This document shows, in pieces, positions 2,790-27,135 of a DNA stretch of 64,000 bases. Position 1 is the first letter of the stretch. Each line of letters opens with the position of its first letter. The notes under the pieces were generated by a model. The model saw only the letters and a program-made list of their open reading frames with translations. It did no database searches and was not told the origin of the DNA. Source of the stretch: Elusimicrobiota bacterium (GTDB lineage Bacteria > Elusimicrobiota > Elusimicrobia > JACQPE01); contig JACPAN010000010.1 in assembly GCA_016180815.1 (NCBI GenBank), forward strand, positions 15,913 through 79,912. Reading direction: 5' to 3'. Made by a program: the position numbers and the translations under genes.

Positions 2790-4190
2790 TCAAGGCTCAA
2801 AGGGGACCATCGCCGATGTGGACATGCGGCCCCATTCGGAAAAACTTTCCGGAAAAACGCCCGACAAGAGGACGACGCCGGCGGCGATGCCCAGCGCCAG
2901 GGCGACCGGTGCGCTAAGACGATCGGGGCGATCCCGGAGGGCAGGCTTCATGTACATCAGAACAGCCACGCGCAAATAGAAAAAGGCGGAAATGACGCTG
3001 CAAAGGACGCCTAAAACCGCAAGCAAAGTGTAGCCCGAGGCCAAGGCGCTTCTAAAAACCAAAAACTTGGCGGCGAAACCGGCCGTCGGCGGAATGCCGG
3101 TCAATGACAGCAGAAAAAGAAGCATGAGCCCGGCGGTCCAGGGTGATTGCTCAGCCAAACCCTCATAGCCGGTTAAGTCCTCACCTCGCTCACCCAAGCG
3201 TATGACCACGGCAAAAGCCCCCAACGTCATAAAAGCATAGGCAAAAAGATAAGAGGCCGTTGACGCAAAATCCATCGGAGTTCCCCCCAGCACGCCCAAC
3301 AGCGCGTAGCCTGCATGCGCGATCGATGAATAAGCAAGCATGCGTTTGACATTCTTCTGAGGCAAAGCCAGGAGATTGCCGATCACCATGGATAATACGG
3401 CCAGGATGGAAAGAATTAAAGACCAGGCGTTCCAGAAATCAGGGAAAGCCGTCAAGCAAACTCTGCCCAAAACAGCGAAGCCCGCGATTTTGGAGCCGAC
3501 CGCTAAAAAGGCCGCGATCGGAGCGCCCGCGCCCTCATACGCGTCCGGCGCCCAGGCGTGAAAAGGCACGGCTGAAATTTTAAAGGCCAAACCCCCGATC
3601 ATGAGGGCCACGGCCACGCCGATCAGCGGCTCAGTGGTCAACGAACGCCCGGACAAAGCATCGGCAATCGCGGCGAATTCCAAATGACCGCCGGAGAATC
3701 CCCAGGCCAAAGCCGCACCGTAAAGAAGAACGGCCGAGGCGAATGAGCCGAGCACAAAATATTTAAATGCGGCCTCCGTGGCCTGAGGACGGTCGCGCTC
3801 GATGCCGACCAGGATATAGGAAGACAGCGCCATCAGCTCCAGGCCCAGATAAAGCATCAGCAAGTCCTTTGCCGAAGCGGCCAGCATCATGCCGGTGGTG
3901 GCCAATAGAAGAAGGCTGAAGTACTCGGACCAGGGAACATGCTCTTCGCTTAAGCGGCGCAAACTAAGCATCGCGGATAAGGCCAAAGTAGCCGAGAAAA
4001 GAATTTTAAAAAAACGCGCGAATTCATCCGCGACAGGGGCCCTGAAGGCCAAGCCGGCGGACAACACCGAGGCGAATAAGACGGCGGCCAAGGCGAATGA
4101 AGGCGAAGAGATGCGGCGGGCGAAGAGGATAAGGATCAGGGCAACCCCGGCCAGGGCGAGCTCGGGGAAATAGGGCGCTATTAAGGGCAT
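2790..4190 (-). CDS. nuoN: NADH-quinone oxidoreductase subunit N
   Basis: Motifs FHAWAPDAYEGAGAPIAAFLAVGSKIAGF and MLAYSSIAHAGYALLG. The ORF in the track extends to 4235, but the NuoN-like N-terminus MPLIAPYFPELALAG begins at the internal Met at about 4190. Confidence 0.88.
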   Translation of the reverse strand: MPLIAPYFPELALAGVALILILFARRISSPSFALAAVLFASVLSAGLAFRAPVADEFARFFKILFSATLALSAMLSLRRLSEEHVPWSEYFSLLLLATTGMMLAASAKDLLMLYLGLELMALSSYILVGIERDRPQATEAAFKYFVLGSFASAVLLYGAALAWGFSGGHLEFAAIADALSGRSLTTEPLIGVAVALMIGGLAFKISAVPFHAWAPDAYEGAGAPIAAFLAVGSKIAGFAVLGRVCLTAFPDFWNAWSLILSILAVLSMVIGNLLALPQKNVKRMLAYSSIAHAGYALLGVLGGTPMDFASTASYLFAYAFMTLGAFAVVIRLGERGEDLTGYEGLAEQSPWTAGLMLLFLLSLTGIPPTAGFAAKFLVFRSALASGYTLLAVLGVLCSVISAFFYLRVAVLMYMKPALRDRPDRLSAPVALALGIAAGVVLLSGVFPESFSEWGRMSTSAMVPFEP

Positions 4191-4269
4191 TGCAGGACTC
4201 CTGCCAAAACATAGAGAGGGCCTGGGTTCCCGCATTCGCGGGAATGACGATGGGATAGCGAAAACTTTC

Positions 4270-5742
4270 TCATAACCCCGCCCTCAGACCAGCGCCGTTT
4301 AATTGCATCAGCAAATGTTCGACGGAAACGCGCAGAAAACCTAAAACGGAATCAGGGTAAAGCCCGATCACCAGCGCCAGCGCGGCCAAAGGAGCCAGGG
4401 TCGCCATTTCGCGCCAGTCCAGGTCCTTTAAATTGGGGTGGCGGTTGTCCCCCAGGGCCAACCGGTAAAACAGCCAGACCATATACATGGTCCCTAAAGC
4501 CACACCCAAAACGCCGGAGAGCCCGAGCCAAGTCCGCATGGTAAACGCGCCGTTTAAGATTAAAAATTCGCCGACAAAGGAATTCAAGCCAGGAAATCCG
4601 GTGGCTGCCAAGGAAAACAGCGCCAGAAAAACCGTGTAGACCGGAAGGGCCTTAAAAAGCCCGCCGTAACGCGCGATATCGCGGGTATGCGTTCGTTCAT
4701 AAAGCATGCCCACGCATAAAAACAAGGCGCCGGTGATAATGCCGTGATTAATCATTTGAAGAATCGCGCCTTCCAGGCCGCTCGCGGTAAAAGAAAAAAT
4801 GCCCAGCGTCACAAAACCCATGTGGCTGACGCTCGAATAAGCGATCAACCTTTTGACATCGGTTTGGGTCAAGGTCACGCACGCCCCCCAAATAATGGCG
4901 GCCACCGATAAGGCGAGCATAGGCTTCAAGAAATACAACGAGGCGCCGGGCAAAACCGGCAGGCAAACCCGGAGGAATCCGTAAGCGCCCATTTTAAGCA
5001 GAATCCCGGCTAAAATCACGCTCCCGGCCGTCGGCGCTTCGGTATGCGCGTCCGGAAGCCAGGTATGCAGAGGAAACATCGGCACTTTAACCGCAAACGC
5101 GGCCGTGAAAGCCCCGAACAGCCAATACTGAAGCGTGGGCTCGATCATGGTTCTGGACAAAGCGTCGAATTCCAGAGTTCCTCCGCCCAAATTGTAAAGC
5201 GCGATCATGCCCAAGAGCATCAAGACGCTGCCCGCTAAAGTGAACAGTAAAAATTTAACCGCGGCGTAAACCCGCTCCGTGGAGCCCCAAACCCCGATCA
5301 AGAGAAAAATAGGCACAAGAATAAGTTCCCAAAACACGTAAAAAAGCAAAAGGTTCGCGGCCGCAAAAAGCCCGATCATGGCGGTCTCGGAAACAAGGAG
5401 CGCGCCGTAAAACGCGCGCGTGCGCGTTTCAACCGCGCGCCAGGAAACGGCCACGCACAAAATGGAAAGCAAGGCCGCCAGGAAAATAAACGGCAGGCTG
5501 ATCCCGTCCACGCCCACGGAATACGCGATATTCCAGGAAGGAATCCAAAGCGCCTGCTCCGTAAATTGCAGTTGGGCCATCTGCTTGTCGAACAGAAAGA
5601 ACAAGGGCAAGGACAAAACGAATGTCGCGACCGTCGTCAACAGCGCGATCCAGCGCGCGGCCCTGGCGCTAGGGAAAAGCATAATGGCCGCGGCCCCGGC
5701 CATGGGCAGAAAAATAATGGAACTCAGCATATGGTCCATCAT
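4270..5742 (-). CDS. nuoM: NADH-quinone oxidoreductase subunit M
   Basis: Motifs WLPDAHTEAPTAGSVILAGILLKMGAYGFLR and LIAYSSVSHMGFV. The likely start is ATGATGGACCAT (MMDHMLSSIIFLP), which overlaps the upstream stop as ATGA. The longer track ORF reaching 5838 overlaps the upstream gene. Confidence 0.9.
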   Translation of the reverse strand: MMDHMLSSIIFLPMAGAAAIMLFPSARAARWIALLTTVATFVLSLPLFFLFDKQMAQLQFTEQALWIPSWNIAYSVGVDGISLPFIFLAALLSILCVAVSWRAVETRTRAFYGALLVSETAMIGLFAAANLLLFYVFWELILVPIFLLIGVWGSTERVYAAVKFLLFTLAGSVLMLLGMIALYNLGGGTLEFDALSRTMIEPTLQYWLFGAFTAAFAVKVPMFPLHTWLPDAHTEAPTAGSVILAGILLKMGAYGFLRVCLPVLPGASLYFLKPMLALSVAAIIWGACVTLTQTDVKRLIAYSSVSHMGFVTLGIFSFTASGLEGAILQMINHGIITGALFLCVGMLYERTHTRDIARYGGLFKALPVYTVFLALFSLAATGFPGLNSFVGEFLILNGAFTMRTWLGLSGVLGVALGTMYMVWLFYRLALGDNRHPNLKDLDWREMATLAPLAALALVIGLYPDSVLGFLRVSVEHLLMQLNGAGLRAGL

Positions 5743-7502
5743 TGCAAGACTGCCGCCATCATCATGGCCACAATGAGTCCGGCGGCCATGGCCAGGCCAT
5801 AATCCTGGGCATTGCCTGTTTGCATGGGGCGAAGCCAACGGGAAGCGGCTTGGGTCAAACGCCCGACGCCATTGGCCGCTCCGTCGACGACGACTTGATC
5901 CAGCTTGCGTAAAATTTTAGAAACGCCCAGGACAAGGCCGGTTGTGAAAAACTCATAAATTTCCCCGACAACGCGCTGCTCAAAACGCAGCAGAGGGGCC
6001 GCCCCCCAGCGCATAAAGGCGCCGGCGCCGCGCCGATAAAACCAATCCGTATCCAAACTAATCGTGGGTTTGGGATCGAGCTGAGGCAGAAGAAGAAAAA
6101 ATCCCAGCGCGGTAAAGCCAAGAAGCCCCAAAGTCGCGATGACGTGATGGACCGTATACGGCGCGTAATCCACGGCAAAAGGCAAATGCCGGTAAAGAAG
6201 TCCCGGAGCCACGCCGATCAAAATACAGGCCCCCGCGGCTAAGGCCATGGCCGCAAGCATATTCGACGGCGGCTCTTGAGCCGCGATGCCTTTATCCTTG
6301 CCGAAAAACATGTAATACGGAAGTTTGAGTCCGGTATGCAGGAACGTTCCCGCAGAAGCCATGGTTAATAAGAGAAATAACGCGGCCCGATGCGATTCCC
6401 CCGCCGCTGAAACAACCATGGCCTTGCTCACGAATCCGCTGAACAGCGGCACCGCTGAAATGGCGAACGCGCCGATCATGTACAAAAACATGGTGCGCGG
6501 CATAGTTTTATAAAGGCCGCCCATTTCGCTGAGATTTCTTAATCCGGTCATTTGCAGCACGGCCCCGGCGCCCATAAAAAGCAGCGCCTTGTAAAGAATA
6601 TGGGCGAAGGCATGCGCCGTGGCTCCGTTTAAGGCCAGTTCCGTCCCCAGGCCGACCCCGCAGACCATGTAACCCACCTGGCTGATGATGTGATAAGCCA
6701 ACAGGCGGCGCGCGTCGTTTTCAAGAACGGCGTAAACAACGCCATAAAGGGCCATGGCTGCGCCGAGCCAAGCTAAGAGTTCGGTGCCCGGATAGCCGCG
6801 GATTAAAGCGTATACCGCTGATTTGGTGGTGAAGGCCGTCAAGAAAACCGCTCCGGTGGGCGTGGCCTCCGGGTAAGCGTCCGGCAGCCAGGCGCCTAAA
6901 GGCGGCACAGCCGCGTTTAATAAAAAGGCGATCAGAATTAAGAAAAAAGCCGGGCTGCCCGCGAAAGCGCCCATGTTGTCAAAAGCCAAAGAGCCGGTAT
7001 CATTCCAATGAATCGCAGCTCCGGCCAAAAGGCATAAGCCGCCGACGACATGAACCAAAAGATAACGGAAACCAGCGGCTGTGGCTCGGGGATCACGCCT
7101 CAACCAAACAATCAAGACAGCGGCAACCGCCATCAATTCCCAAAAAATAAACAGCGCGAGGAAATCCCCGGCCAAGGTCACGCCAAGCGCTCCCCCCACG
7201 TACGTAAGGGCCGAGACGTGCTGAGCATCGTCGTTAACGTGAAGCGCGTACACCATCCCGATCAACGCCATGAGCGAAAAAACGTAACAGAAAACCAGGC
7301 TTAATTGATCCACCCGCCCGAAAACAATTTCCATGTCCAGGAACGACACCGCGCCATAAACGCCGGGTTGAAGCGACAGGCAGACAATGAAAGCCGCGGC
7401 CGGCAAAAGCACAAGATAGGTCTTTTGAACGCGCCCCTTAAGAAAAGGGACAAGCCAAGCGCCCACGATCAGCAACAAGCCGGGGTGGAGCCAGTTCATC
7501 AT
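5739..7502 (-). CDS. nuoL: Divergent NuoL/MrpA-like antiporter-like membrane subunit (587 aa)
   Basis: Polytopic membrane protein with WLPDAYPEATPTGAVF and AYHIISQVGYM. Its C-terminus (LDTDWFYRR ... DQVVVDGAANGVGRL ... NAQDYGLAMAAGLIV) resembles the NuoL/MrpA long C-terminal helix. The usual TPVSALIHAAT histidine region is replaced by VFLTAFTTKSAVYALIR. Confidence 0.75.
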   Translation of the reverse strand: MMNWLHPGLLLIVGAWLVPFLKGRVQKTYLVLLPAAAFIVCLSLQPGVYGAVSFLDMEIVFGRVDQLSLVFCYVFSLMALIGMVYALHVNDDAQHVSALTYVGGALGVTLAGDFLALFIFWELMAVAAVLIVWLRRDPRATAAGFRYLLVHVVGGLCLLAGAAIHWNDTGSLAFDNMGAFAGSPAFFLILIAFLLNAAVPPLGAWLPDAYPEATPTGAVFLTAFTTKSAVYALIRGYPGTELLAWLGAAMALYGVVYAVLENDARRLLAYHIISQVGYMVCGVGLGTELALNGATAHAFAHILYKALLFMGAGAVLQMTGLRNLSEMGGLYKTMPRTMFLYMIGAFAISAVPLFSGFVSKAMVVSAAGESHRAALFLLLTMASAGTFLHTGLKLPYYMFFGKDKGIAAQEPPSNMLAAMALAAGACILIGVAPGLLYRHLPFAVDYAPYTVHHVIATLGLLGFTALGFFLLLPQLDPKPTISLDTDWFYRRGAGAFMRWGAAPLLRFEQRVVGEIYEFFTTGLVLGVSKILRKLDQVVVDGAANGVGRLTQAASRWLRPMQTGNAQDYGLAMAAGLIVAMMMAAVLQ

Positions 7503-7565
7503 TGTTTATCTTGCTGCATTAAAGCTAACCGGGGCACACGCTAATGTCTTCGCCCTTTTCATTTC

Positions 7566-8504
7566 TTATTTCTCTACCGAAGAACTTTCCTTCGTAATTC
7601 CAGAATTCAATCTGTATTTATAAATGTTGCCCTCGTTGTCATGGCCTGAATCATCAAGAACAGCCCATTGCTCATCAGGGGAAATGTCAAACTTGCGGCC
7701 GCTGTCAAAAATAGGGCCCCAGTCAAGAACTTTCATTGGGGGCTCTGACCCATCAGCCTTGATTTTCCAGAGGCTCGGATGAGTGCTGTAATAAAAATAT
7801 TGGCCATTTTTGGACCACTGAACATCCTCAACCTTTGTTTCCTGAGAAAACCGGCGTTGATTTTCCCTATTTAAGCCGATTAGCCAAATTCTCCGATACT
7901 CTTTCCAGGGCTTGCGAACTTCCTCGACGGCAATATAGGCCAAGGTGTCCTCTTTAGGTGACCAGTCACAGCAACGCTCCCACTTATTAGCCGGCAGGGG
8001 TGTAAATGGAAATTGATTTTTCCCGTCGCTATCCATGACCCAGAGCCGCGCATCGCGCGTAAACACCATCTGCTTGCCGTCAGGGGACCAGCAGGGATGC
8101 TGAGCCCTTTCTCCTAACGACTGGGCATTGGTCAATTGCCGTAGATCGGTGCCATCGATGTTCACCACAAAAATATCAAAAAGCCATATATTTTTTTTTG
8201 CATCCTTAGGACCAATTCCATAACTTTGAAAAGCGATCTTTTTGCCGTCAGGGCTCCAGGCGGGCGCCGAGCTGTTACGCAGCTTCTTGGTAATTTGCTT
8301 CTGCCTTTTGCCATTAACATCCATAACCCAGATATTCGTATAGCCTATCTTGTTGCTTGAGAAAGCTATCTTTGTCCCATCAGGGCTAAAAACAGGGTCC
8401 CTGCATCCTATGTCTCCCTTTACATCGGTGATGCGAATTCCCTGGGCAGAAAGAGGGGAGCATGAGAGGATAATGAATAGACCAAGAAAAGAGCACCTGG
8501 TCAT
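7566..8504 (-). CDS. TolB-like beta-propeller (PD40/WD40-like repeat) protein, probable lipoprotein or periplasmic protein
   Basis: Signal peptide with a possible lipobox (ILSC). Repeated PD40-type units: SPDGTKIAFSS...NIWVMDVNGK, SPDGKKIAFQS, SPDGKQMVFTRD...LWVMDSDGKNQ. GC is about 43-45 percent against about 60 percent in the flanking nuo genes. Confidence 0.75.
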   Translation of the reverse strand: MTRCSFLGLFIILSCSPLSAQGIRITDVKGDIGCRDPVFSPDGTKIAFSSNKIGYTNIWVMDVNGKRQKQITKKLRNSSAPAWSPDGKKIAFQSYGIGPKDAKKNIWLFDIFVVNIDGTDLRQLTNAQSLGERAQHPCWSPDGKQMVFTRDARLWVMDSDGKNQFPFTPLPANKWERCCDWSPKEDTLAYIAVEEVRKPWKEYRRIWLIGLNRENQRRFSQETKVEDVQWSKNGQYFYYSTHPSLWKIKADGSEPPMKVLDWGPIFDSGRKFDISPDEQWAVLDDSGHDNEGNIYKYRLNSGITKESSSVEK

Positions 8505-11350
8505 AAGGTCGCTGCCAACCGGGACCAGGAGCCAATACGCTGGTTCTCCCTGGCTTTGCGGGCATTCTCAAGTTTTTGAATGAGGCTCTTGAGAATGCCG
8601 TCATTATCGATAAGATTAAGTTGTCTTGCCAGGCGCAGGTCAATTTCCAAACTTTGAAATGAAACAGTTTTAATTACAGATGAGGGTTGGCCTGGGATTG
8701 GGCTGTAAGATACTTGATAAACATCAATTTTCCCTGCCATTGTGAGGCCGGAAAATTGGGTGTCCAAGCTAGTTTGAGCGTTGGAATCAGTATTAATCAG
8801 ATTTAAATGATAGCTCCCTTCCCCTGTGCCAACAACCTGAATGCTATAGAGACCTGGAGGGGCCGGGGTTAGCTCAAGATAAGCAAAACGTTCTTCATCA
8901 TTGCCTTCCCCGGTGTCATCTCCCAACGAGGTATCGGACTCGTATGCGGCTCCAGGGATTTGCGTAACAAGAGAAGAAGCTAAAGGATCAAACCCTGTTT
9001 TTCTTCCTAGAGAATCAATCAGCAAAAGCTCGATGGGGGAGCGGCCTAATATATTGACGCTGCTGCTGTCGCCTGACTCTGGGGTCAAGACTCTTAAAGA
9101 AATGATCTTACGTTTTAGGGGATCGGAGATTCTGTTGAAGTATTCGGTTAATGTTTCGATATCGCTATTCCCTGGATCATTGATGGCGTAGGTTTCCCCT
9201 TGTTTGCCTTTGATCACCAAAAAATGGGTTTTGTCGGAAGTACCAATACTGTAAACCTTGACAATAACAGGCTGTTCTTTTAGCTCAAGGTCAACTTGTT
9301 CATTGGTGGGCTGGTCAATTCTGGTGTAGTGAAATGGCCGGTCTTGAGTATCAGTGTAGGCAGGGATTTTGGGGAAGATAAGATCAGCGCCATCAAAAGC
9401 ATCGGCTTCTTTGAGGCCATTATTGAGGGTAAGGGGATTAACGTCAAAGCCATAGAATCTCAATATATTGCTGACAGTAACAACGGCGCAGCCGATGTTT
9501 CTAAACATCTGATTTTCCCCGGTACCATTGCCAACGAATTCGCCAGCCCAATCAACGTCTTCTCCAAATTGTTTATCATCATCTACCTCATGCGCTATGT
9601 CGCCGGATGCTCCCCCCACCGTCACGCTGGCTAAATGAATCTCCTGGCCCGGGTTAATCGTATAGTGGAGGACGGCCTGTCCGACGACGGTTCCGGTTGG
9701 GTCTCCGATATTGACGTCGGCCTGCACAGGGATGGATTGGCCGGGAGCGCGATAGAAAAGCCACATGCCGTAGGTGCCCTCAAGGGGTGTCGTGGAAGCA
9801 ACGACAAAGCTGCCCTCGCCGCAACCTAATCCGAAGTTAAGCGGCTCTCCGGAACTCGCCAAAAAAGAATCGGAACGCATGTCGCTTCTGGCATCGCCTG
9901 AAACATTAACGAGACTAAACCGTTGGAAAAGAGCTTGAGAGGCAAGCCGCTTGAGTCGGCATTGATAATGAGAAACTTGACTGCCGTCGGGAGAAACTTC
10001 AACAACATCAGTCTCGGCGATAATCGTTCCAGGGGCATCGGCAAAATCCAAGACCTCATCGCTGCCGGGCTCTTGGATGCCTAAAGCCAGGTCGCCGATT
10101 GAGACCGGGTTGACTGCAGGGCTTTCAACAAAAGTAAAGTCTGTGAAATGAAGAACGCCTCCTTGATTGGCTGCAAAAACCTTGGGTTCATCAGGAGGCG
10201 CAATGTGAGAGCCGGGACCCATCAGATGCGCAAGCTGGGTCAACAGCCTGGCTTTAAGCTCTTTTGGAAGCTGAGATCGTTCGATAAGAAGTTCTGGGGT
10301 TGAGGCCTGACCCTGAACCTGGGCTTGGGGAAACTCCTGGAAGGTTTTAATGGAACGGTTTTTAACTTGTTTAGCCTCATCGCCGATTAAGTTTAAGCCT
10401 AAATTGCCCCTGAGGGTTAAACCTTGGGTGTTATCAGGATCAACGATCAAGGCGAATTCTGAGCCCCTGCCGTCATTATTGATAAGGATGTTGTTTTGGG
10501 AACCTGGGTCAAAAGAAGAGTCTCCGCAGCATTGATTGGTCAGCCAAATGCCCACACCTGCTGATGGGGTAGTCGGGTTGTCCGGGATGGATGTTTTGTT
10601 GTTCTCTACGGCGGTGTTATCGGCATTTAAAAGAAAAATGCCGGACATGGAAAAAAGGGTTAAAGAATCGGGGATTTGGCCGGAGATCGCGTTGTGGGCG
10701 ATGGTGTTGTTCTGGGGTCTTGAGCGCAATTGGCTTTGGACAACAGCGCCTCTCCATAGTTGGGCCACAATACCCACGCCTCCCCCGCAAAGTTTGGCTC
10801 CCGTTTGGCAGTCAAAAACAGAGAGATTTTCGATGACGTTGTGATGGATATTCCAATTGTCTCCGCCGTTATTGGTGATGGCTTGAACCGTGCCCAGGAC
10901 TTTGATGTGGCTGATTTCAACGTCGTTGATTTTGTCATTGCCGTTGATCAAGTCTCTGGAAAAAATAGCGGCTCCAAGGGGATCAAGATTGCTGTTTGAA
11001 ACGCCTTGTCCGTCAAAGGTCAAGTGATGGATTTTGCTGCCGCTTGCTTCCTTTCTTGAGAGCCAGAGGCCGACTTTAAAACCGGAAGGATGTTTGGGCG
11101 AATCGCAGCCGATAATCACGGCCCCTTCCCCGGTAATTTCCAGACGCTTGGAAACAAAAGCGCCGCAGTGACGGCCGGGCGAGAGCCTGATTGTGTCGCC
11201 TGGGCCGGCAGCATTAACGGCTGCCTGGAGGGTTGGCTGGTTTTTGGGAACTTCAACGACGGCAGCGCTAATAAATGGAATAAAAATACTGCCGATTAAA
11301 AAAAGAAACAAAAAGAAACTGCCGTAAAAAATTCTCGATCTCCGTATCAC
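8501..11350 (-). CDS. Large secreted multidomain protein: signal peptide, right-handed parallel beta-helix, C39-like cysteine peptidase domain and PPC-like beta domain
   Basis: 949 aa with a hydrophobic N-terminal signal. Beta-helix Asn-ladder repeats (NNTIAHNAISG, ENNKTSIPDN, NNILINNDGRGSE). The C-terminal half matches the C39-like peptidase pattern (QMFRNIGCAVVTVSNILRFYG ... THFLVIKGKQGETYAINDPG). A PPC-like segment follows (PAPPGLYSIQVVGTGEGSYHLNL). Low GC (about 46 percent). Both ends overlap their neighbours as ATGA. Confidence 0.6.
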   Translation of the reverse strand: MIRRSRIFYGSFFLFLFLIGSIFIPFISAAVVEVPKNQPTLQAAVNAAGPGDTIRLSPGRHCGAFVSKRLEITGEGAVIIGCDSPKHPSGFKVGLWLSRKEASGSKIHHLTFDGQGVSNSNLDPLGAAIFSRDLINGNDKINDVEISHIKVLGTVQAITNNGGDNWNIHHNVIENLSVFDCQTGAKLCGGGVGIVAQLWRGAVVQSQLRSRPQNNTIAHNAISGQIPDSLTLFSMSGIFLLNADNTAVENNKTSIPDNPTTPSAGVGIWLTNQCCGDSSFDPGSQNNILINNDGRGSEFALIVDPDNTQGLTLRGNLGLNLIGDEAKQVKNRSIKTFQEFPQAQVQGQASTPELLIERSQLPKELKARLLTQLAHLMGPGSHIAPPDEPKVFAANQGGVLHFTDFTFVESPAVNPVSIGDLALGIQEPGSDEVLDFADAPGTIIAETDVVEVSPDGSQVSHYQCRLKRLASQALFQRFSLVNVSGDARSDMRSDSFLASSGEPLNFGLGCGEGSFVVASTTPLEGTYGMWLFYRAPGQSIPVQADVNIGDPTGTVVGQAVLHYTINPGQEIHLASVTVGGASGDIAHEVDDDKQFGEDVDWAGEFVGNGTGENQMFRNIGCAVVTVSNILRFYGFDVNPLTLNNGLKEADAFDGADLIFPKIPAYTDTQDRPFHYTRIDQPTNEQVDLELKEQPVIVKVYSIGTSDKTHFLVIKGKQGETYAINDPGNSDIETLTEYFNRISDPLKRKIISLRVLTPESGDSSSVNILGRSPIELLLIDSLGRKTGFDPLASSLVTQIPGAAYESDTSLGDDTGEGNDEERFAYLELTPAPPGLYSIQVVGTGEGSYHLNLINTDSNAQTSLDTQFSGLTMAGKIDVYQVSYSPIPGQPSSVIKTVSFQSLEIDLRLARQLNLIDNDGILKSLIQKLENARKARENQRIGSWSRLAATL

Positions 11351-11595
11351 TTTTTGCCTCTGCCGCTTTCCTCATAATAATTTTCAGGGCGCATCAGCCA
11401 AAACTGCCCGATGAATTTGGACACGACGATAATGAGGACGCAGGACACCAAACCATAAAGCGAGCCCCAGGCCGGAAAATGCTCAAAATCAAAATGAACA
11501 TGCCCGTGGAACAGGCGCGGAGCGATGATTTCAACCAAAGCGATAACGCCCAGGCTGATATAAAACCACTGCTTCGCTTTCGCAGAGAATTTCAT
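11347..11595 (-). CDS. Small two-TM His-rich membrane protein (82 aa), translationally coupled between antiporter-like subunit and beta-helix protein
   Basis: Two predicted TM helices (FYISLGVIALVEII; LYGLVSCVLIIVVSKFI) flank HGHVHFDFEHF. It overlaps each neighbour by 4 nt. GC is host-like. Confidence 0.5.
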   Translation of the reverse strand: MKFSAKAKQWFYISLGVIALVEIIAPRLFHGHVHFDFEHFPAWGSLYGLVSCVLIIVVSKFIGQFWLMRPENYYEESGRGKK

Positions 11596-13082
11596 GGAAG
11601 CGCTCTACCGGCCAAACCGAGCAGAAAATTCGGATAAAAACCGAGCGCCACCGAGGCCACGGCGCTTAAAACCAAAGGCACAACCATCCACGGAATTTCC
11701 CGCGCATGTTCATGGCCATGAGCGGCCTCGGCAACCTGTTCTTTTTCAAAGTAGGCCTTATAGACGACAGGCCCTAGGTACGCTGCCGTGAAAAAAGACG
11801 AAAGCAGAAGCACGGCCATCAGCGCCAAACTTCCGCGCTCCAAGGAACCGAGGACCAAATTCCATTTGGACACGAACCCGCCTGCAGGCGGCACGCCCAC
11901 TAAACTCAACGTTGCGAGCGTGAAAGCGGCCATGGTCCAGGGCATGCGCTTGGCGAGCCCGGAAAGCTGGCTCACTTGCGTTTTATGCGCCGTGACATAG
12001 ATAGAACCGGCGCAGAAAAACAGAGTGATTTTGGCGAAGGCGTGATTCGTGATATGAATGATTCCGCCCAAAGCGCCCCTCGAGGTCAACAGCGCGCCGC
12101 CTAAAAGAATATAAGAAAGCTGGGAAATGGTTGAAAAAGCGAGCCGCGCTTTTAAATTATCCGCCCCAAGGGCCAGCACCGAGGCCACGAGAATCGTAAT
12201 GGCCGCGGCCCAAAGCGTCAACTCATCGGCGCCCACGATGCTCATGGCTTCCGGGCCGAAGACGAACAGCATCACCCGCAGCATGGAGAAGACGCCGGTT
12301 TTAACGACGGCCACGGCATGCAGCAGGGCGCTGACCGGCGTAGGCGCCACCATGGCCGCGGGCAGCCAGCTATGCATGGGCATAATCGCGCTTTTGGCAA
12401 ATCCGAACAGAAACATCGCAAAAATACCCCAGAAAAACGCCGGCCGCGCATAGAGAATTTCCAGAGGCAGAATGCCTCCTTTTTGGAATTCCAAAGTTCC
12501 GGTGGTCGTATAAATCAAGACAATCGCGGCCAGCAAAAAAACTTTAGCCGCGCCCAAAAGATAAATCGCGTATTTGCGGGCGCCGGCCTTGGCTTCCGGG
12601 GTTTCCTTATGCGCGACCAAAGGATAGGTGGCCAATGTCAGCGCTTCGTAAAAGATAAAAAGCGTAAAAAGATTGGCGGCAAAGGCCACGCCCATAGTCG
12701 CGGACATGGCCAGGGCAAAACAGGCGAAGTAGCGGGTTTGAGCGTGCTCCGAGAGCGCGCGCATGTAACCCACGGAATAAAACGAGGTTGCGATCCATAA
12801 AAGCGAGGCGCCCAGCGCGAACAAAAGCCCGAACGCATCAGCGCGAAAGGCGATTTCCACCCCGGGCAACAGGCGGAACAAAACGCATTCGAGGTTCAGG
12901 CCCGACCAAACAGCCGGAATCATGGACGCCACAATCAAAAACTTCAAAATCCCGGCTCCGACCGACCAAAACTCCCTAAGATTCCGGCGTTTCGAGCCCG
13001 TCGCCATGACAAGAAATGCGGCGATCAGGGAAACCGAAACAGCGCAAACAGGTTTCAAAGAAAAGGCCGTTGTCGTCACCAT
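11592..13082 (-). CDS. NuoL/M/N-family (MrpD-like) antiporter-like subunit, positional nuoL after nuoK (496 aa)
   Basis: Motifs HSWLPAAMVAPTPVSALLHAVAVVKTGVFSMLRV and ARKYAIYLLGAAKVF. The usual LPDAH/M aspartate is replaced by Ala. It lacks the long C-terminal horizontal-helix region. Confidence 0.8.
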   Translation of the reverse strand: MVTTTAFSLKPVCAVSVSLIAAFLVMATGSKRRNLREFWSVGAGILKFLIVASMIPAVWSGLNLECVLFRLLPGVEIAFRADAFGLLFALGASLLWIATSFYSVGYMRALSEHAQTRYFACFALAMSATMGVAFAANLFTLFIFYEALTLATYPLVAHKETPEAKAGARKYAIYLLGAAKVFLLAAIVLIYTTTGTLEFQKGGILPLEILYARPAFFWGIFAMFLFGFAKSAIMPMHSWLPAAMVAPTPVSALLHAVAVVKTGVFSMLRVMLFVFGPEAMSIVGADELTLWAAAITILVASVLALGADNLKARLAFSTISQLSYILLGGALLTSRGALGGIIHITNHAFAKITLFFCAGSIYVTAHKTQVSQLSGLAKRMPWTMAAFTLATLSLVGVPPAGGFVSKWNLVLGSLERGSLALMAVLLLSSFFTAAYLGPVVYKAYFEKEQVAEAAHGHEHAREIPWMVVPLVLSAVASVALGFYPNFLLGLAGRALP

Positions 13083-13381
13083 TTAAGTTTGGTCAGTTCA
13101 TCAATATGAGCCGCGGGCTGGTTGCGTTGAAGGGCGAGCAAAAGGCCGAGCCCGACCGCGACCTCGGCCGCGGCCACGGCAATGACAAAGATGGCGACGA
13201 CCTGGCCGCCTAAATTTTGAAGATGAAAACCAAAACCGGCCAAACTCACATTCACGGCATTGAGCATAATCTCCACCGAAACCAGCATCAAAATAAGGTT
13301 GCGGCGGATCAAAAAGCCCGTCATGCCGATTCCAAAAAGAATCGCGCTCAACATCAGATAAGAAGATAAAGGAGCCGCCAT
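13076..13381 (-). CDS. nuoK: NADH-quinone oxidoreductase subunit K
   Basis: 101-aa three-TM protein. LMLVSVEIMLNAVNVSLAGF is the NuoK/ND4L signature. Confidence 0.9.
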   Translation of the reverse strand: MAAPLSSYLMLSAILFGIGMTGFLIRRNLILMLVSVEIMLNAVNVSLAGFGFHLQNLGGQVVAIFVIAVAAAEVAVGLGLLLALQRNQPAAHIDELTKLKW

Positions 13382-13953
13382 TAAACGTTTGTCCCCGAAA
13401 GAGCCCTTGTTTGCCGCGCCGCCGGACCGGATGATTGAGCAATTTTTCCGTTGGCCGGCTGCGCCCGGCGTTTCCCCAAGACAATGGCGCCCACGATCGC
13501 GGCTAAAAGAATCAAGGAAGCGATCTCAAAATGAACGGCAAAATCGCCGAAAAGCGCCGTGCCAAGGTCGGCGACCGTGGGCTGCCAGAGGACGCCCTCA
13601 GGCAAGGGCCCGTCAAACGCCAGACCCTTCAACGAGCGCAGCGCCGTCGCAGCCAAAACCACGAAACCCAATCCCGCGGCAACGCCGAAAATCCAATGCG
13701 CGCCGTAACGGGGCTCGTTCCCCTCGACTTTTAAATCCAACAGCATCAAGATGATCAAATAAAACACAAGGATGGCCCCCGCATAAATAATAATTTGAGT
13801 GGCGGCCAAAAATTGAGCTCCGGCTAAAAGAAAAATTCCCGCCACATGCAAAAAAAGGGCCAAAACCCAAAGGACGCTATGGATCGGATTGCGGCGAGTG
13901 ACGGCTAGAAGGGCCGAGGTTACGCTTGCGGCCGCAAGATAAGCGAAGGCCAT
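13381..13953 (-). CDS. nuoJ: NADH-quinone oxidoreductase subunit J
   Basis: 190-aa membrane protein. RNPIHSVLWVLALFLHVAGIFLLAGAQFLAATQIIIYAGAILVFYLIILMLLD is typical of NuoJ/ND6. Confidence 0.9.
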   Translation of the reverse strand: MAFAYLAAASVTSALLAVTRRNPIHSVLWVLALFLHVAGIFLLAGAQFLAATQIIIYAGAILVFYLIILMLLDLKVEGNEPRYGAHWIFGVAAGLGFVVLAATALRSLKGLAFDGPLPEGVLWQPTVADLGTALFGDFAVHFEIASLILLAAIVGAIVLGKRRAQPANGKIAQSSGPAARQTRALSGTNV

Positions 13954-13994: not shown

Positions 13995-15023
13995 TTAATG
14001 TTTATGCTTCTCGATTTCTTTGACGGCCAATGGAATAAATTCATATAAATCCGCCTCAATGCTGAAGGTCGCCAGTTTCATCAGCGGGCAATCGGGATCT
14101 TTATTGACGGCGATAATGACTTCCGCCTGGCCCATGCCGGCTAAATGCTGCACCTGACCGGAAATACCGCAAGCGATGTAAAGCTTGGGCCGGACCGTCC
14201 GTCCGGTCAGACCGACCTGATGCCGGTAAGGAATCCATCCGGAATCAACCGCCGCCCGGGAAGCGCCGACAGCCGCCCCCAAAACTTTGGCCAGAGCGCG
14301 GATCGTCTCAAAGCCCTCGGCTTTGGATAAGCCCCGGCCGCCGGAAACGATTTTATCCGCGGAACCGATATCAATCTCGGTGTTCTGTTCGGGAACAAAA
14401 TTCACGAATTTTGTTTTTGAATTCCAGGAAGAAGGGTCCACGGCGACTTTTACGGTTTCGCCGGTTTTCCCGGCGCTGCGTGCGGCTCTCGAAAAAACCA
14501 TGGGCCGCACGGTCACGATCTCGGGACGGCTGCGCTCGCACAAAACAGTGGCGATCAGATTGCCGCCGTAGGCCGGGCGCATCGCTTTTAAGACGCCATT
14601 GGCCACGCCGTTATTGCCTGAGCTGACGGACAAATCCGTCACATCCGCCATGGCTCCGGTTTTTAGACGAACGGCCAAGCGTCCCGCGATGGAACGGCCG
14701 ATCGTGGACGCCGGCAAGAGAAGCTTATTAGGCTTCTCTTTTTCAATCAAATCAGCCAAAACTTTGACGTAAGCTTCATCGATGAAATTAGCCAATTCAG
14801 GATGATCGGCCAAGTAAACCTTGGCCGCGCCCGCTTCAAAAAGTTCCTTCGCGTATCCATCAAGTTGATGGCCGACCAGCACCACGGACAACGGCTCGCC
14901 CAAATCTCCGGCAAGCTTGCCGCCGATGGACAAGAGCTCGTAAACGGTTGGGACCAATTTACCGCGGCGAATTTCGCCGACGCACCAAACGCCTTTATAT
15001 TGACCGAGATTTGTTTCGGACAT
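13995..15023 (-). CDS. etfA: Electron transfer flavoprotein alpha subunit
   Basis: 342 aa. It has the EtfA N-terminal domain and a C-terminal FAD-binding region (PKLYIACGISGQVQHLAGM...VIIAVNKDPDCPLM). Confidence 0.9.
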   Translation of the reverse strand: MSETNLGQYKGVWCVGEIRRGKLVPTVYELLSIGGKLAGDLGEPLSVVLVGHQLDGYAKELFEAGAAKVYLADHPELANFIDEAYVKVLADLIEKEKPNKLLLPASTIGRSIAGRLAVRLKTGAMADVTDLSVSSGNNGVANGVLKAMRPAYGGNLIATVLCERSRPEIVTVRPMVFSRAARSAGKTGETVKVAVDPSSWNSKTKFVNFVPEQNTEIDIGSADKIVSGGRGLSKAEGFETIRALAKVLGAAVGASRAAVDSGWIPYRHQVGLTGRTVRPKLYIACGISGQVQHLAGMGQAEVIIAVNKDPDCPLMKLATFSIEADLYEFIPLAVKEIEKHKH

Positions 15024-15037
15024 GGTATTTTTCCTTC

Positions 15038-15847
15038 CTATAGAAGTTTCAGCTCTTTAAGCTTTTCGACGAATTTTTGCGCCTTTTCTTCGATGGTGGC
15101 GCCTTCGATGCGCACGCCGCCTTGCCTTCTGGCCGGCGCGTCTTTTTTCCACACCTTAGTCGGGCTGCCCGTCAACCCCAAGTGCGCGGCATCGGCGCCG
15201 ATATCAGCGGCCGACCATTTGGCGACGACCGCTTTTTTAGAGGCCATTTTGCCTTTAAGCGAAGGCAGGCGCGGCTCATTGATCTCTTTGACGACGGAAA
15301 TCAAGGCCGGCAGCTTCATTTCCAGAACATCCATGCCGTCTTCCATCATGCGCTCCACGCGCACGATTTGATCGTTGATTTCCTCGACCTTCTTGACGAA
15401 GGCGACATTGGGCCAATCCAGCCAGGCGGACAAACCGGGGCCCACCTGGCCCGTATCGCCGTCATTGGTCTGTTTGGCGCAGATAACCACGTCCACTTTG
15501 CCTTTTTCCTGCTGAATTTTCCGAATGCCCATGGACAGCACGTAGGCCGTGGCGTAGGAATCGGAATCATTGAACGCCTCGTCCGAGAGATGGTACACGC
15601 TGTCGATGCCGCGGGCGATCGCCTCGCGCAGGATTTCTTCCGAGCGCGCCGGACCCATGGTCACGGCCGCGGTCCACGAGCCGGGAACGCGCTCTTTCAA
15701 ACGGATCGCTTCTTCCAAGGCGTATTCATCAAACGGGCTGATCGCATAGGTCAACCCGGTGGACATCAACTCCCCGGTATGGGGATCGATCTGGACGGAT
15801 GAGGAAGCCGGCGTTTGTTTGATGCAGACGACAATATTCAAAGGCAT
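15038..15847 (-). CDS. etfB: Electron transfer flavoprotein beta subunit
   Basis: 269 aa starting MPLNIVVCIKQTPASSSVQIDPHTGEL, the typical EtfB N-terminus. Confidence 0.9.
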   Translation of the reverse strand: MPLNIVVCIKQTPASSSVQIDPHTGELMSTGLTYAISPFDEYALEEAIRLKERVPGSWTAAVTMGPARSEEILREAIARGIDSVYHLSDEAFNDSDSYATAYVLSMGIRKIQQEKGKVDVVICAKQTNDGDTGQVGPGLSAWLDWPNVAFVKKVEEINDQIVRVERMMEDGMDVLEMKLPALISVVKEINEPRLPSLKGKMASKKAVVAKWSAADIGADAAHLGLTGSPTKVWKKDAPARRQGGVRIEGATIEEKAQKFVEKLKELKLL

Positions 15848-17109
15848 TAGACGCTCAGAGCCTCCTTGGTGTTGGCCTTGGAAGCATACTCTTTAATGGT
15901 CATCATGGCGATTTCGTTTTTCTGAATCTGGCTCGTCCCCTCGTAGATTTGCGTGATTTTCGCGTCCCGCATAAATTTCTCGATGGGGAAATCCCGCATG
16001 TAACCGATGCCGCCGCACATCTGAACGCAGTCGGTGGTCACAGCCATCGCCGTCTCCGAACAAGAGAGTTTGACCATGGCCGAATATTTCGTCAGGCGGG
16101 CGCCGCTCAAAGCCGTCATTTCCTCGTAAACCGTTTTACCGGAAGCTTGACTCCGGCTGAAGGCCTCTTTGAGAGTTCGATCCATGACGCGGTTGACCGC
16201 ATAGAGCAGAGCCCTGGATGTTTCGATCTTGGTGGCGCAATCCGCGAGCATGTGCTGGAGAGCCTGGAAATGAATGATGGCCTGGCCGAATTGTTTGCGC
16301 ACGCGCATGTACTCGATGGCCTCATTCAAGGCGCCCTGAGCGATGCCCACGGCCTGGGCGCCGACGCCGGGACGGGAAAAGTCGAACGTCGCCTGCGCGA
16401 CGAACAACCCGCGCCCCTCTTCCCAAAGCAGGTTCTTGGCCGGCACTTTGCAGTTATTGAGCACCAGTTCGTACGTGGGGCTGGCGCGAATGCCCATTTT
16501 GGTTTCTTTCTTGCCGAAGGAGAAGCCCGGAGTTCCTTTTTCAACGACAAAGGCCGAAATACCCCGCGCCCCTCTCTTTGGGTTGGTCGAAGCGAAGAGC
16601 GTATAAATTTCCGCAACCTCGCCGTTGGAACAGAAGTTCTTCATGCCGTTGAGGATATAGTAATCCCCCTCGCGCTTAGCCGTAGTCCTGGTGGCCGTCG
16701 CCTCGGAACCGGCTTCAGGCTCGGTAATGGTGAAAGCGCCCAGGCGCTTGCCGCTGGCTAAATCCGGCAGCCAGCGCTTCTTCTGCTCGTCCGTGCCGAA
16801 AAGAAGAATCGGAATCGCGCACAAGCCGCACGCCGCGATGCAAAGAGCGATACCGCCGCAGACTTTGGATATTTCCTCCGTGACCAGGCAAAGCTCCGTA
16901 TTGGCGCCGCCCAAACCGCCGTACTCCTGCGGCAAATACACGCCGAAAAGATCCGCGCGCCGGAACTCTTCGATGACTTCCCAGGGGAATTTTTCCGTTT
17001 CATCGTGATGGGCGCGGACGGGCTTGACCTTTTTTTCGGCGATTTCCCGCGCCAGTTTGATGATTTCCCTTTGTTCGTCCGTAAATTCGTGGTCCAATGT
17101 CAACAACAT
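15847..17109 (-). CDS. Acyl-CoA dehydrogenase (butyryl/short-medium chain type)
   Basis: 420 aa with ACAD motifs (LTEPEAGSEATATRTTA; YYILNGMKNF; QMCGGIGYMRDFPIEKFMRDAKITQIYEGTSQIQ). The RBS is AAGGAG. Confidence 0.9.
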   Translation of the reverse strand: MLLTLDHEFTDEQREIIKLAREIAEKKVKPVRAHHDETEKFPWEVIEEFRRADLFGVYLPQEYGGLGGANTELCLVTEEISKVCGGIALCIAACGLCAIPILLFGTDEQKKRWLPDLASGKRLGAFTITEPEAGSEATATRTTAKREGDYYILNGMKNFCSNGEVAEIYTLFASTNPKRGARGISAFVVEKGTPGFSFGKKETKMGIRASPTYELVLNNCKVPAKNLLWEEGRGLFVAQATFDFSRPGVGAQAVGIAQGALNEAIEYMRVRKQFGQAIIHFQALQHMLADCATKIETSRALLYAVNRVMDRTLKEAFSRSQASGKTVYEEMTALSGARLTKYSAMVKLSCSETAMAVTTDCVQMCGGIGYMRDFPIEKFMRDAKITQIYEGTSQIQKNEIAMMTIKEYASKANTKEALSV

Positions 17110-24141: not shown

Positions 24142-24554
24142 TTAAGTATCTCCGACCAGCGCGGAAGAAGAACATACACGCCCTTCTTGGGTGAATCCGC
24201 CCAACCGTTGTCCTTCGCCCTGTTGGAGTAGGCCCGATTATAGGCGCCCCCCATCAAGCCGACCATCTTGCTCCAGGCGTCCTCAACCGATTTAACCGGG
24301 ACCGTCGCATTTCCAGTTTTACCTTTTGCAAGATAGGCCAGCAGAAGCGTAAATTTCTCGGGGCCCTTAAGAGAACGCGCGTGCGTCTTCATGAAGAAAC
24401 GCATCGGCGCGTTGAAATCAATCTTGGGCGCCCGGGCAGGCGCCAGCGCCTTACGCGCAACAGTTACCTTAGATTTAGTTCCCAACTTCTCCAGAACAAC
24501 CTCACCCTGATAGATGTTTTCGGCATCATCAATGAAACGAATTTCCAGTTTCAT
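24138..24554 (-). CDS. Hypothetical small basic protein (138 aa), paralog 2 of the cassette
   Basis: A GGTGAGGA RBS sits 7 nt upstream. C-terminal KSVEDAWSKM...AKDNGWADSPKKGVYVLLPRW aligns with the other two small proteins. Confidence 0.5.
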   Translation of the reverse strand: MKLEIRFIDDAENIYQGEVVLEKLGTKSKVTVARKALAPARAPKIDFNAPMRFFMKTHARSLKGPEKFTLLLAYLAKGKTGNATVPVKSVEDAWSKMVGLMGGAYNRAYSNRAKDNGWADSPKKGVYVLLPRWSEILN

Positions 24555-24564
24555 TTCTGCATCC

Positions 24565-25008
24565 TCACCAGTTCGAATACACGAATATTTTTCCCTTACC
24601 CTTTCGAACTTCCTGGGTCCGGCGCAACACTCTACGCCGCGTTTGCCGGACCAGAATCGGGCTTAACGTCGTAATCGGATATGAATGACCCGCGACGCGC
24701 AATGCCTCACGCACATCGAAAATCGACTTTGCGTTCTTAAAGAACCCTTCACGCGCTAAATCCGAGACTCGCTCAGTCGGCCCGCCCTTTCCTGATCCCT
24801 TTGCGGTGCGCGCGGGTACAGCCAGGGCTTGCTTCTTATGGGTAGAATTGGCCACGAAACCCACATTGGATCCACCCCCGGAGAGCAGGTGGCCCAATAT
24901 GACCTCAAAGGCCTTTTCCTTCAGCTTTTGATCCTGCATATCGCTGACGGATTCTTCAGCCTTCTTGCGGGCGGCGCGGATATTGGCAATTGGGTTATTT
25001 TGTTTCAT
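24565..25008 (-). CDS. Hypothetical small basic protein (147 aa), paralog 1 of the cassette, first gene, apparently leaderless
   Basis: C-terminal AREGFFKNAKSIFDVREAL...RRTQEVRKGKGKIFVYSNW. Its ATG lies 8 nt downstream of a consensus -10 box. Confidence 0.5.
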   Translation of the reverse strand: MKQNNPIANIRAARKKAEESVSDMQDQKLKEKAFEVILGHLLSGGGSNVGFVANSTHKKQALAVPARTAKGSGKGGPTERVSDLAREGFFKNAKSIFDVREALRVAGHSYPITTLSPILVRQTRRRVLRRTQEVRKGKGKIFVYSNW

Positions 25009-25016
25009 TGGTAGAC

Positions 25017-25046
25017 ATTATAAGGAATTGCAATATTTACTGTCAA
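25017..25046 (-). promoter_or_regulatory. Consensus sigma70 promoter (TTGACA-N18-TATAAT) driving the four-gene cassette as a leaderless transcript
   Basis: On the minus strand: TTGACA (25046-25041), an 18-nt spacer, then TATAAT (25022-25017). The ATG at 25008 starts 8 nt after the -10 box, so there is no room for an SD. An AT-rich upstream tract contains the palindrome ATAAATTTAT. Confidence 0.55.
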
Positions 25047-25575
25047 CTCACCGTCGGAGATTTTATTATTGATAGACTTAGCATATGAATATAAATTTAT
25101 TATCCGAGCTTTGGGACGGGATCGGTGACGTAGAGCACCGAAAAGAGTGCGCCCTAACCATTGGCTTGTGCCGCCGCGTTGCGCGCGCGGCACAGCCTCG
25201 GCGATGCCGATCAGGTCACAATGCCAGAGCCATTAACGCCAATCCCAAGCCTCATGTCAGAGTACCTTGGCAAGTGGGGGCAGTTAGAAAATTACCGGCT
25301 CCAGGAGGCTTCGCTGCGCCTCCTCTTTCACAGCCTCTGCTCCGAAAACAAAAAATTGAGCATGTGCTGCTAAAAGTAAGTGCCCTTAACGATTTACAGC
25401 ACCAATATTTTCGACACATATTCAGTAGCCAAGCATACCCTCAAAAAAGACATAGATGAGAGTTCAAGGATTCCCTCTTTATGGCCAATGACTCAATAAG
25501 GCCATGGGATGAACCAGTCTTCTCTTCCGGGGACATTTTGCGGCCTCGAGAGTATTCGTACAGGTAGATCTCGGA

Positions 25576-26303: not shown

Positions 26304-26320
26304 ATTTTCAACAGCCTGGA

Positions 26321-27052: not shown

Positions 27053-27107
27053 TGAAACAGATGATCATTATATCGGCATTTGTCGGCAACGAATCACGCT
27101 ATTGCAA

Positions 27108-27131
27108 AATCGTACGACTTCTGGTACGATT
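27108..27131. promoter_or_regulatory. Palindromic putative YefM operator in a divergent promoter region
   Basis: AATCGTAC-gacttctg-GTACGATT is an inverted repeat with a GTAC core, 5-14 nt upstream of the yefM start codons. Confidence 0.4.
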
Positions 27132-27135
27132 CATT

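Follow-up and report, generated by a model that had tools for sequence, protein, structure and literature searches.

The 64,000-nt stretch of DNA analysed here (the window; Elusimicrobiota bacterium, GenBank assembly GCA_016180815.1, contig JACPAN010000010.1, positions 15,913 to 79,912) contains a complex I-type (nuo) operon on the minus strand, in which two unrelated genes, encoding proteins of 949 and 312 amino acids (aa), sit exactly between the genes for an 82-aa and a 587-aa protein. Our reading, to which we assign a probability of roughly 0.78, is that the pair is a promoter-less accessory cassette of two genes, inserted precisely at this position of a conserved operon in one groundwater Elusimicrobia lineage. 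The insert measures about 3.84 kb and was found in a single groundwater Elusimicrobia genome. An earlier note, made from the letters of the sequence alone, had proposed an insertion into the nuo operon and had suggested a comparison of the orthologous locus in related genomes; its positions for both open reading frames (ORFs) were exact. The site comprises the following features.

11347..11595, minus strand: conserved 82-aa membrane protein, upstream flank; its TGA stop overlaps the GTG start of the cargo.
8501..11350, minus strand: first cargo gene, multidomain protein of 949 aa, predicted to be exported; GTG start.
7566..8504, minus strand: second cargo gene, 312-aa PD40 beta-propeller (Pfam PD40, PF07676); ATG start.
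7503..7565, minus strand: 63-nt spacer from the stop of the 312-aa gene (7566) to the ATG of the 587-aa gene (7502); no start/stop overlap.
5739..7502, minus strand: 587-aa MrpD-like subunit with a NuoL-type C-terminal lateral helix, downstream flank (NCBIfam PRK12668.1, 736 bits, cutoff 564).

A scan of the genome collection with the 587-aa protein yielded 80 related loci, onto which the proteins of the window were then mapped. None of the 80 carries anything between the 82-aa and the 587-aa genes, which abut or overlap in all of them; the common order is nuoJ, nuoK, the 496-aa gene, the 82-aa gene, the 587-aa gene, nuoM, nuoN, plus nuoA and nuoB where covered. This contact in every locus identifies the two cargo genes as a lineage-specific insertion. 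The nearest relative (L054, one Elusimicrobia metagenome-assembled genome (MAG), 80% identity) has the same synteny from acd-etfB-etfA through nuoJ to nuoB, without the insert. Since L054 also carries acd-etfB-etfA upstream of nuoJ, it represents a true empty site. The match of the C-terminus of the 82-aa protein (PENYYEESGRGKK in the window) with that of L054 (PENYYDKAGKKS), together with the alignment of the 587-aa protein to its homologue from residue 1-2, indicates that both flanking genes are intact. The lineage-specific insertion, with both flanks conserved at the orthologous site, is real, and the operon is, as the earlier note had it, unbroken at the coding level.

The junctions can be placed closely. 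Aligned as DNA, the window and L054 are homologous up to an A-rich stretch ahead of the cargo start, and again from about 10 nt ahead of the 587-aa gene's ATG; when the junctions are aligned, the A-rich stretch that immediately precedes the ATG is where homology passes from the upstream to the downstream junction. Because the homology resumes only about 10 nt before this ATG, the 63-nt spacer is part of the insert; it shows no homology to the junction at the empty site of L054. At the upstream end, the stop codon of the 82-aa gene overlaps the start codon of the 949-aa gene by 4 nt (GTGA at 11347-11350), and a Shine-Dalgarno-like motif (AGAGG) lies 6 nt upstream of the GTG. A further overlap of 4 nt (ATGA at 8501-8504) links the stop of the 949-aa gene to the start of the 312-aa gene. 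Both overlaps had been taken as the junctions of the insert with the operon; both exist, but the one at 8501-8504 is internal to the cargo, and only the proximal junction overlaps, the distal junction being the spacer. The spacer lacks a strong Shine-Dalgarno sequence, gives no match to terminators or promoters, and does not fold significantly (z = +1.18).

The composition of the cargo is atypical for its host, the deviation being moderate. The GC content is 0.54 for the window, 0.55-0.57 in the flanks of the insert and 0.44-0.54 within it (500-nt windows). The drop from about 60 to about 45 percent that had been claimed is real, but smaller. The GC contents of the two genes are 0.469 (949 aa) and 0.491 (312 aa), and their GC contents at third codon positions (0.51 and 0.50) lie about two standard deviations below the window mean (0.63, standard deviation 0.06). 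Codon usage, a check that had likewise been proposed, ranks the cargo genes 3rd and 4th of 34 in distance from the remaining genes, the ranking taking in genes of at least 250 codons; the 948-codon gene has a distance of 0.345, compared to about 0.19-0.22 for genes of similar length. We note that the window holds a second low-GC tract (0.47-0.49) at 24500-29000, with genes for a PIN-domain protein, a YgjP-like metallopeptidase, a UPF0047 protein and a DUF559/restriction endonuclease-like protein, as well as several ORFs without a Pfam hit. This tract looks like another accessory islet.

The arrangement suggests how the cargo would be expressed. Both genes lie on the same strand as the operon, the first starts on the preceding stop, and neither a terminator nor a promoter was detected (the insert has no more terminator- and promoter-like matches than expected by chance), which makes transcription by read-through from the operon promoter the most likely mode; the cargo would then be co-expressed with the nuo genes. 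Translation of the first cargo gene would be coupled to that of the 82-aa gene, and translation of the second to the first, while the downstream nuo genes (587-aa gene, nuoM, nuoN, nuoA, nuoB, nuoCD) would depend on read-through over 3.8 kb. In nearly all relatives the 587-aa gene is coupled to the 82-aa gene; in the window this ancestral coupling is gone.

Homologous pairs are found in other genomic contexts. The closest full-length homologues of the 312-aa propeller, P0292 (43% identity) and P0294 (42%), are each encoded immediately downstream of a gene with the C39-like peptidase and beta-sandwich module that is also found in the 949-aa protein (loci L085 and L086). As a control, JGI metagenomes were scanned with the propeller alignment, and none of the 80 generic PD40 loci obtained has a neighbour like the 949-aa protein. 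One of these two homologous pairs lies on contig L084 (1-8518), which forms a circle of 8,490 bp with 38% GC; its ends overlap by 28 bp, and an 871-aa gene wraps across the contig ends. It encodes a Rep_1 protein (E = 4e-66), a tyrosine recombinase, two ORFs without assignment, and a pair of C39-module and PD40 genes, and is apparently a small rolling-circle plasmid with the gene pair as cargo. The presence of a homologous pair on a Rep_1 plasmid makes the pair of the window look like a mobile cassette: the two genes appear to form a unit that is mobile elsewhere, and a horizontal origin of the insert is plausible. A tblastn search of PLSDB and INPHARED with the C39 module gave no match. Other relatives of the module are located in unrelated housekeeping neighbourhoods and have other partners; P0153 (Parcubacteria) has the same beta-helix-plus-C39 architecture as the 949-aa protein. 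A separate example comes from the sample SRR12113383, as does the population of the window: in L089 (598-3674) and L090, the Parcubacteria C39-module gene P0155 and an overlapping 345-aa gene without a Pfam hit are found between transketolase and PfkB kinase genes, with junctions of 4-5 nt, tightly embedded in a housekeeping array.

Envelope genes also occur within a nuo operon of another groundwater Elusimicrobia MAG (L003, 1-10178; GCA_016209025.1, JACQWW010000019.1). Here, five genes separate nuoA from nuoB, with a start/stop overlap at either junction. Their products are a TPR/PMT-like membrane protein, a pair of secreted proteins, P0003, and a PorV-like protein. P0003 is a 979-aa protein of the type IX secretion system (T9SS) type whose beta-helix is 48-58% identical to that of the 949-aa protein. 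The nuo genes of L003 belong to a different complex I paralogue, and the scaffold has an N-gap near 4.55-4.65 kb.

Whether the arrangement exists in the organism at all is a fair question, given that the source is a MAG, that the composition of the insert differs from its surroundings, and that no other genome (0 of the 80 loci) has the same arrangement. An assembly or binning artefact, in which a low-GC fragment was chimerically joined into the nuo contig, is nevertheless hardly credible. Logan contigs of three different sequencing runs (SRR12113383, SRR12113385 and SRR12113431), found by exact-protein look-up and assembled independently, match the window at 100% identity over 8205-11779, 3344-8692 and 5998-9568, respectively; together they tile 3344-11779 and span both junctions, which argues that there is no assembly chimera. 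Moreover, each breakpoint lies precisely at the intercistronic junction, with full-length genes on either side; a random chimera would seldom have this form. A different matter is whether the insertion disables the operon by polar effects and by the lost coupling of the 82-aa and 587-aa genes, such that this copy of complex I is non-functional and decaying. All flanking nuo genes have kept their full length, show 60-90% identity to their orthologues and contain no frameshifts, and no terminator is predicted in the insert; we therefore consider such decay improbable, even with the 587-aa gene deprived of its ancestral overlap and placed behind a spacer without a clear Shine-Dalgarno sequence, and with 3.8 kb of foreign DNA ahead of six or more nuo genes.

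Several observations weigh against the insertion of a mobile accessory cassette as we read it. Repeat search and inspection of the sequence around the insert revealed no flanking direct or inverted repeats, no target-site duplication and no attC-like core, and no mobility gene lies in or adjoins the insert. The lower GC content of the cargo could partly reflect the type of gene. The third member of the close propeller subfamily, P0358 (37% identity), has no C39 neighbour. The plasmid-borne cassette is only 28-43% identical to the pair of the window and is not its donor. The closest taxon-named relatives of both the beta-helix and the C39 domain are Elusimicrobiota, so that the donor may belong to the same phylum; transfer within the Elusimicrobiota, and not from a foreign source, may account for the insert. 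Finally, the envelope genes with a homologous beta-helix in the nuo operon of L003 hint that the nuo location may not be accidental. Taken further, beta-helix envelope or secreted cassettes might be recurrently captured by, or selected in, complex I operons of Elusimicrobia, possible reasons being an advantage of co-expression with respiration, a NosD-like beta-helix and propeller that serve the complex, or an insertion process that prefers overlap junctions. Such recurrence would fit the overlaps at both junctions of L003, the location of two of the seven examined contexts of relatives inside nuo operons (by our rough estimate, the chance of at least one further case among six is about 6%), the weak NosD match at the N-terminus and the presence of NosDFY among the fold matches. 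The numbers are small, however, and the count is post hoc. The cargo is missing from 80 of 80 orthologous operons, including that of the syntenic Elusimicrobia relative; the two cases differ in nuo paralogue, junction and gene set and have one domain in common; the L003 scaffold has a gap; and the other five contexts are unrelated housekeeping neighbourhoods. The idea is weakened further by P0271, a relative of the beta-helix with 64% identity, whose gene adjoins an archease gene outside any nuo operon. We regard recurrence at nuo operons as doubtful. An extended form, in which promoter-less beta-helix/C39 cassettes are operon hitch-hikers that enter stop/start-overlap junctions of strongly expressed housekeeping operons and recreate the coupling, with complex I operons of Elusimicrobia as a preferred or selected site, is likewise unlikely; if it were true, this class would tie the secretion of envelope- or matrix-degrading enzymes to respiratory activity. 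The insertion of an accessory cassette in one lineage remains the reading that we prefer.

The larger cargo gene encodes a protein with several distinct domains, arranged as follows.

11264..11350, minus strand: signal peptide, residues 1-29 (MIRRSRIFYGSFFLFLFLIGSIFIPFISA, followed by A), recognised by eye from a basic n-region, a hydrophobic core and an ISA-A cleavage motif.
10346..11263, minus strand: right-handed parallel beta-helix, residues ~30-335 (AlphaFold2 (AF2), Foldseek).
9701..10093, minus strand: middle beta-rich domain, residues ~420-550 (AF2, partly confident; predicted local distance difference test (pLDDT) 37-85).
9080..9565, minus strand: C39-like cysteine peptidase of clan CA with papain fold, residues ~596-757 (Pfam, alignment, AF2, Foldseek).
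9488-9490, 9224-9226 and 9176-9178, minus strand: putative catalytic codons Cys621, His709 and Asp725, respectively.
8663..9061, minus strand: beta-sandwich, residues ~764-896 (AF2, all-beta, high confidence).
8504..8662, minus strand: C-terminal helical tail, residues ~897-949 (AF2 helices).

The GenBank model of this gene (HYT79_05100, 758 aa) begins at ORF residue 192, so that it lacks the first 191 residues, among them the signal peptide and over half of the beta-helix. The long form is supported by its homologues, whose alignments begin at residues 7-24; for annotation, this means that the deposited model is too short at its N-terminus. A word-indexed search with the 949-aa protein returned three proteins, one of them P0003, whereas an exhaustive search returned 2,119 proteins at E ≤ 1e-3. 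Two groups can be told apart: stand-alone beta-helix proteins of about 330 aa, whose match covers residues ~20-340, and proteins matching at residues ~595-940. Given about 2,100 homologues at the level of domains, the designation as an orphan protein was rejected. A metagenome scan with the whole protein gave no match. Neither of the two cargo proteins matches PADLOC (defence) or PHROGs (phage) models.

For the N-terminal part, the beta-helix predicted in the earlier note is borne out by structure prediction. An AF2 model of residues 1-600, based on 38 homologues, has a pLDDT above 95 over residues 30-330 and of 90-99 across the domain, with short stacked strands, and is weak beyond. Its Foldseek matches are the polysaccharide lyase RbmB (probability 1.00), phage tailspike depolymerases, the fucoidan lyase FdlA, polygalacturonases, and NosD/NosDFY. 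Pfam Beta_helix (PF13229) is matched by 12 of the 38 homologues and Pfam NosD (PF05048) also has matches among homologues, the query itself having no Pfam match there, and the NCBIfam NosD model matches its N-terminus weakly (25.7 bits, cutoff 300). The model and its fold matches thus support a right-handed parallel beta-helix for residues ~30-335. The middle domain, which follows a helical linker (residues 350-377), is shared only with P0002 among the homologues.

The second group of homologues corresponds to the C39-like peptidase and the domains that follow it. As an isolated domain the peptidase region scores 23.6 bits with Pfam Peptidase_C39 (PF03412), above the gathering threshold of 22, but within the whole protein it scores 17.5 bits, below that threshold; with C39_2 (PF13529) the isolated domain scores 21.5 bits (threshold 24). 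In an alignment of 42 sequences, C621 (in GC), H709 (in HF.V) and D725 (in NDP) are invariant. The AF2 model of residues 585-949 (42 homologues; pLDDT 89.9, predicted template modelling score 0.86) consists of an alpha/beta domain, a beta-sandwich and a helical tail. The best Foldseek match of the peptidase domain is the peptidase domain of PCAT1 (7n87; E = 9e-4, probability 1.00, template modelling score 0.59), followed by PeiR, CdiA-CT and staphopain, and its profile matches in the Protein Data Bank (PDB) are all C39-like and weak (E ~0.02). Alignment and model therefore support the peptidase that had been read from the sequence, with an invariant Cys/His/Asp triad. The position of the domain behind a signal peptide suggests that it acts outside the cytoplasm. 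The 949-aa protein and the neighbouring genes contain no ATP-binding cassette (ABC) transporter domain. A PPC-like domain, also claimed earlier, was not recovered: the region downstream of the peptidase has no Pfam match, PPC included, at E ≤ 10, and is a beta-sandwich of unassigned family that always follows next after the C39-like domain in the homologues. The homologues have a FIMAH-like tail that extends about 35 aa further than the helical tail of the 949-aa protein; they continue with INE.EAQ.GKHI and have weak Pfam FIMAH matches.

The 312-aa protein is a PD40 beta-propeller, as expected from the earlier description: the PD40 model matches with E = 1.7e-26 and 92 bits (threshold 20.9) in three significant stretches, and the gene has internal repeats at a spacing of 132-168 nt. 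Its N-terminus (LFIILSC) reads as compatible with a lipobox or a Sec signal. The term TolB-like holds at the level of the PD40 repeats but not beyond: the protein reaches 97.5 bits with the TolB model TIGR02800, whose equivalog cutoff is 343.15, and only the propeller positions 240-297 of the profile match. An identity as TolB was rejected on account of the score below the equivalog cutoff and of the missing N-terminal domain of TolB. No tol or pal genes were found near the cargo in the window.

From the domains, a function can be proposed. The product of the first gene would be exported via Sec and that of the second would be its exported propeller partner; both would most likely work beyond the cytoplasm, with polymers of the envelope or matrix as targets. 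The beta-helix would bind or cut glycan, and the peptidase would cleave peptide or isopeptide links. Export, substrate and the role of the propeller are predicted from the sequence, and the activity would resemble that of matrix or wall depolymerases. An action of the cargo on complex I is unlikely, and no observation ties the cargo proteins to its function.

The window carries one long array of genes on the minus strand, and the operon has the order acd-etfBA-nuoJ-nuoK-MrpD-like (496 aa)-82 aa-[949 aa]-[312 aa]-MrpD-like (587 aa)-nuoM-N-A-B-CD. The nuo and Mrp identities are backed by Pfam and NCBIfam. Upstream of the site lie the following genes.

17109..13995, minus strand: acyl-CoA dehydrogenase (acd), etfB and etfA.
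13953..13381, minus strand: nuoJ.
13381..13076, minus strand: nuoK.
11592..13082, minus strand: 496-aa MrpD-like antiporter subunit of the complex I membrane arm, upstream flank (Pfam Proton_antipo_M, E = 1.6e-55).

The 496-aa gene scores 633 bits with NCBIfam PRK08375.1-1, slightly below the cutoff of 663, and occupies the same position in all 80 related loci. The 82-aa protein has no family match in Pfam, NCBIfam, PADLOC or PHROGs; a homologue is encoded directly upstream of the 587-aa gene in each of the 80 loci, and the homologues of the 587-aa protein show 66-80% identity over their full length. Downstream, nuoM, nuoN, nuoA and nuoB are followed by a fused nuoCD on the minus strand, which extends from about 1916 past the start of the window. 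A plus-strand ORF of 320 aa (298-1260) overlies this fused gene and was discarded as a spurious antisense ORF.

The host operon itself encodes an unusual type of complex I, in which NuoL is replaced by two MrpD-like subunits (496 aa, and 587 aa with a lateral-helix tail). Between the two is encoded the conserved membrane protein of 64-82 aa without a Pfam or NCBIfam family. The genes follow a permuted order (J-K-D-small-D-M-N-A-B-CD), and the block is conserved at 60-90% identity in the 80 loci, which belong to Acidobacteriota, Planctomycetota, Thermodesulfovibrionia, Acidimicrobiia, a deltaproteobacterium and Elusimicrobia. In the window (13995-17109) and in the Elusimicrobia relative L054 (4241-7358), but in none of the other 79 loci, nuoJ is immediately preceded on its strand by acd, etfB and etfA, at a distance of 41 nt. 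This adjacency may reflect a lineage-specific link of oxidation dependent on electron-transfer flavoprotein (ETF) with a complex I that lacks the N-module. A different junction of the operon, nuoN|nuoA, holds unrelated genes of mixed strand in four relatives (L009, 10.7-16.7 kb; L012, 14.6-18.6 kb; L067, 14.6-18.9 kb; L075, 14.6-16.0 kb), encoding, among others, a pntAB-like transhydrogenase, a VapBC-like toxin-antitoxin, formamidase, transposases, and CBS and HEPN/DUF86 proteins. The nuoN|nuoA junction is evidently a tolerated insertion site and probably the boundary of transcription units.

Lineage-specific accessory inserts are commonplace, and the insert leaves the understanding of complex I unchanged. 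What sets the present case apart is that it is unusually clean: the junction is exact, the coupling is recreated, a syntenic relative has the empty site, and a homologous cassette is found on a plasmid. It is a clear example of a conserved, stoichiometrically coupled respiratory operon, whose order is the same in 80 loci of at least five phyla, that tolerates 3.8 kb of unrelated genes. With the insert, one start/stop overlap was gained and an older one lost; the locus also provides a test case for the limits that translational coupling and polarity set to operon invasion. In addition, it links two uncharacterised and widespread modules, the stand-alone beta-helix and the C39-plus-sandwich module (together about 2,100 homologues), in a mobile unit of two genes. 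The C39 module is common in Parcubacteria and Elusimicrobiota.

The individual components of the cargo have known counterparts. The classical role of C39 peptidases is the processing of double-glycine leader peptides in conjunction with ABC exporters. Members of C39 and C39_2, such as the PCAT/ComA exporters and the pseudomurein endoisopeptidase PeiR, share the papain-like fold and the Cys-His-Asp triad with the cargo domain. Unlike PCAT and ComA, the latter has no ABC transporter fused or adjacent and no evident double-glycine substrate, and is located behind a signal peptide in fusion with a beta-helix and a beta-sandwich; its similarity to solved C39 structures is marginal. RbmB of Vibrio cholerae, phage tailspikes, FdlA and NosD have their fold in common with the N-terminal 300 residues of the cargo protein, but at 9-15% identity, and no catalytic residues can be assigned. 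Closer counterparts are proteins of Parcubacteria and Elusimicrobiota annotated as 'C39 family peptidase' (P0153, MCR4284181.1; P0146, MFC1522960.1), which have the same module of C39-like domain, sandwich and helical tail at 32-37% identity; P0153 also has an N-terminal NosD/Beta_helix domain. These proteins have differing neighbours, only a subset is paired with a PD40 propeller, and none is characterised; compared to them, the 949-aa protein has a shorter tail and an extra middle domain. The 312-aa protein, in turn, shares PD40 repeats and a predicted periplasmic location with TolB, and differs from it by the lack of both the TolB N-terminal domain and nearby tol/pal genes.

With respect to the operon, the nearest precedent are the urf genes: in Rhodobacter capsulatus, Paracoccus and relatives, they are scattered through the nuo/nqo operons without encoding complex I subunits; the product of at least one of them, Urf1, serves an unrelated complex, namely the LH1-RC photosynthetic complex (PMC13066640). 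Like the cargo, they are non-subunit genes that share the strand of the nuo genes around them, in an operon that is intact. They are, however, small and conserved within their clade, whereas the cargo comprises 3.8 kb, encodes large predicted exported enzymes, is restricted to one lineage (present in 0 of 80 relatives) and is atypical in composition. Seen against these systems, the pair is a tidy accessory cassette on a housekeeping operon, and not a new kind of system.

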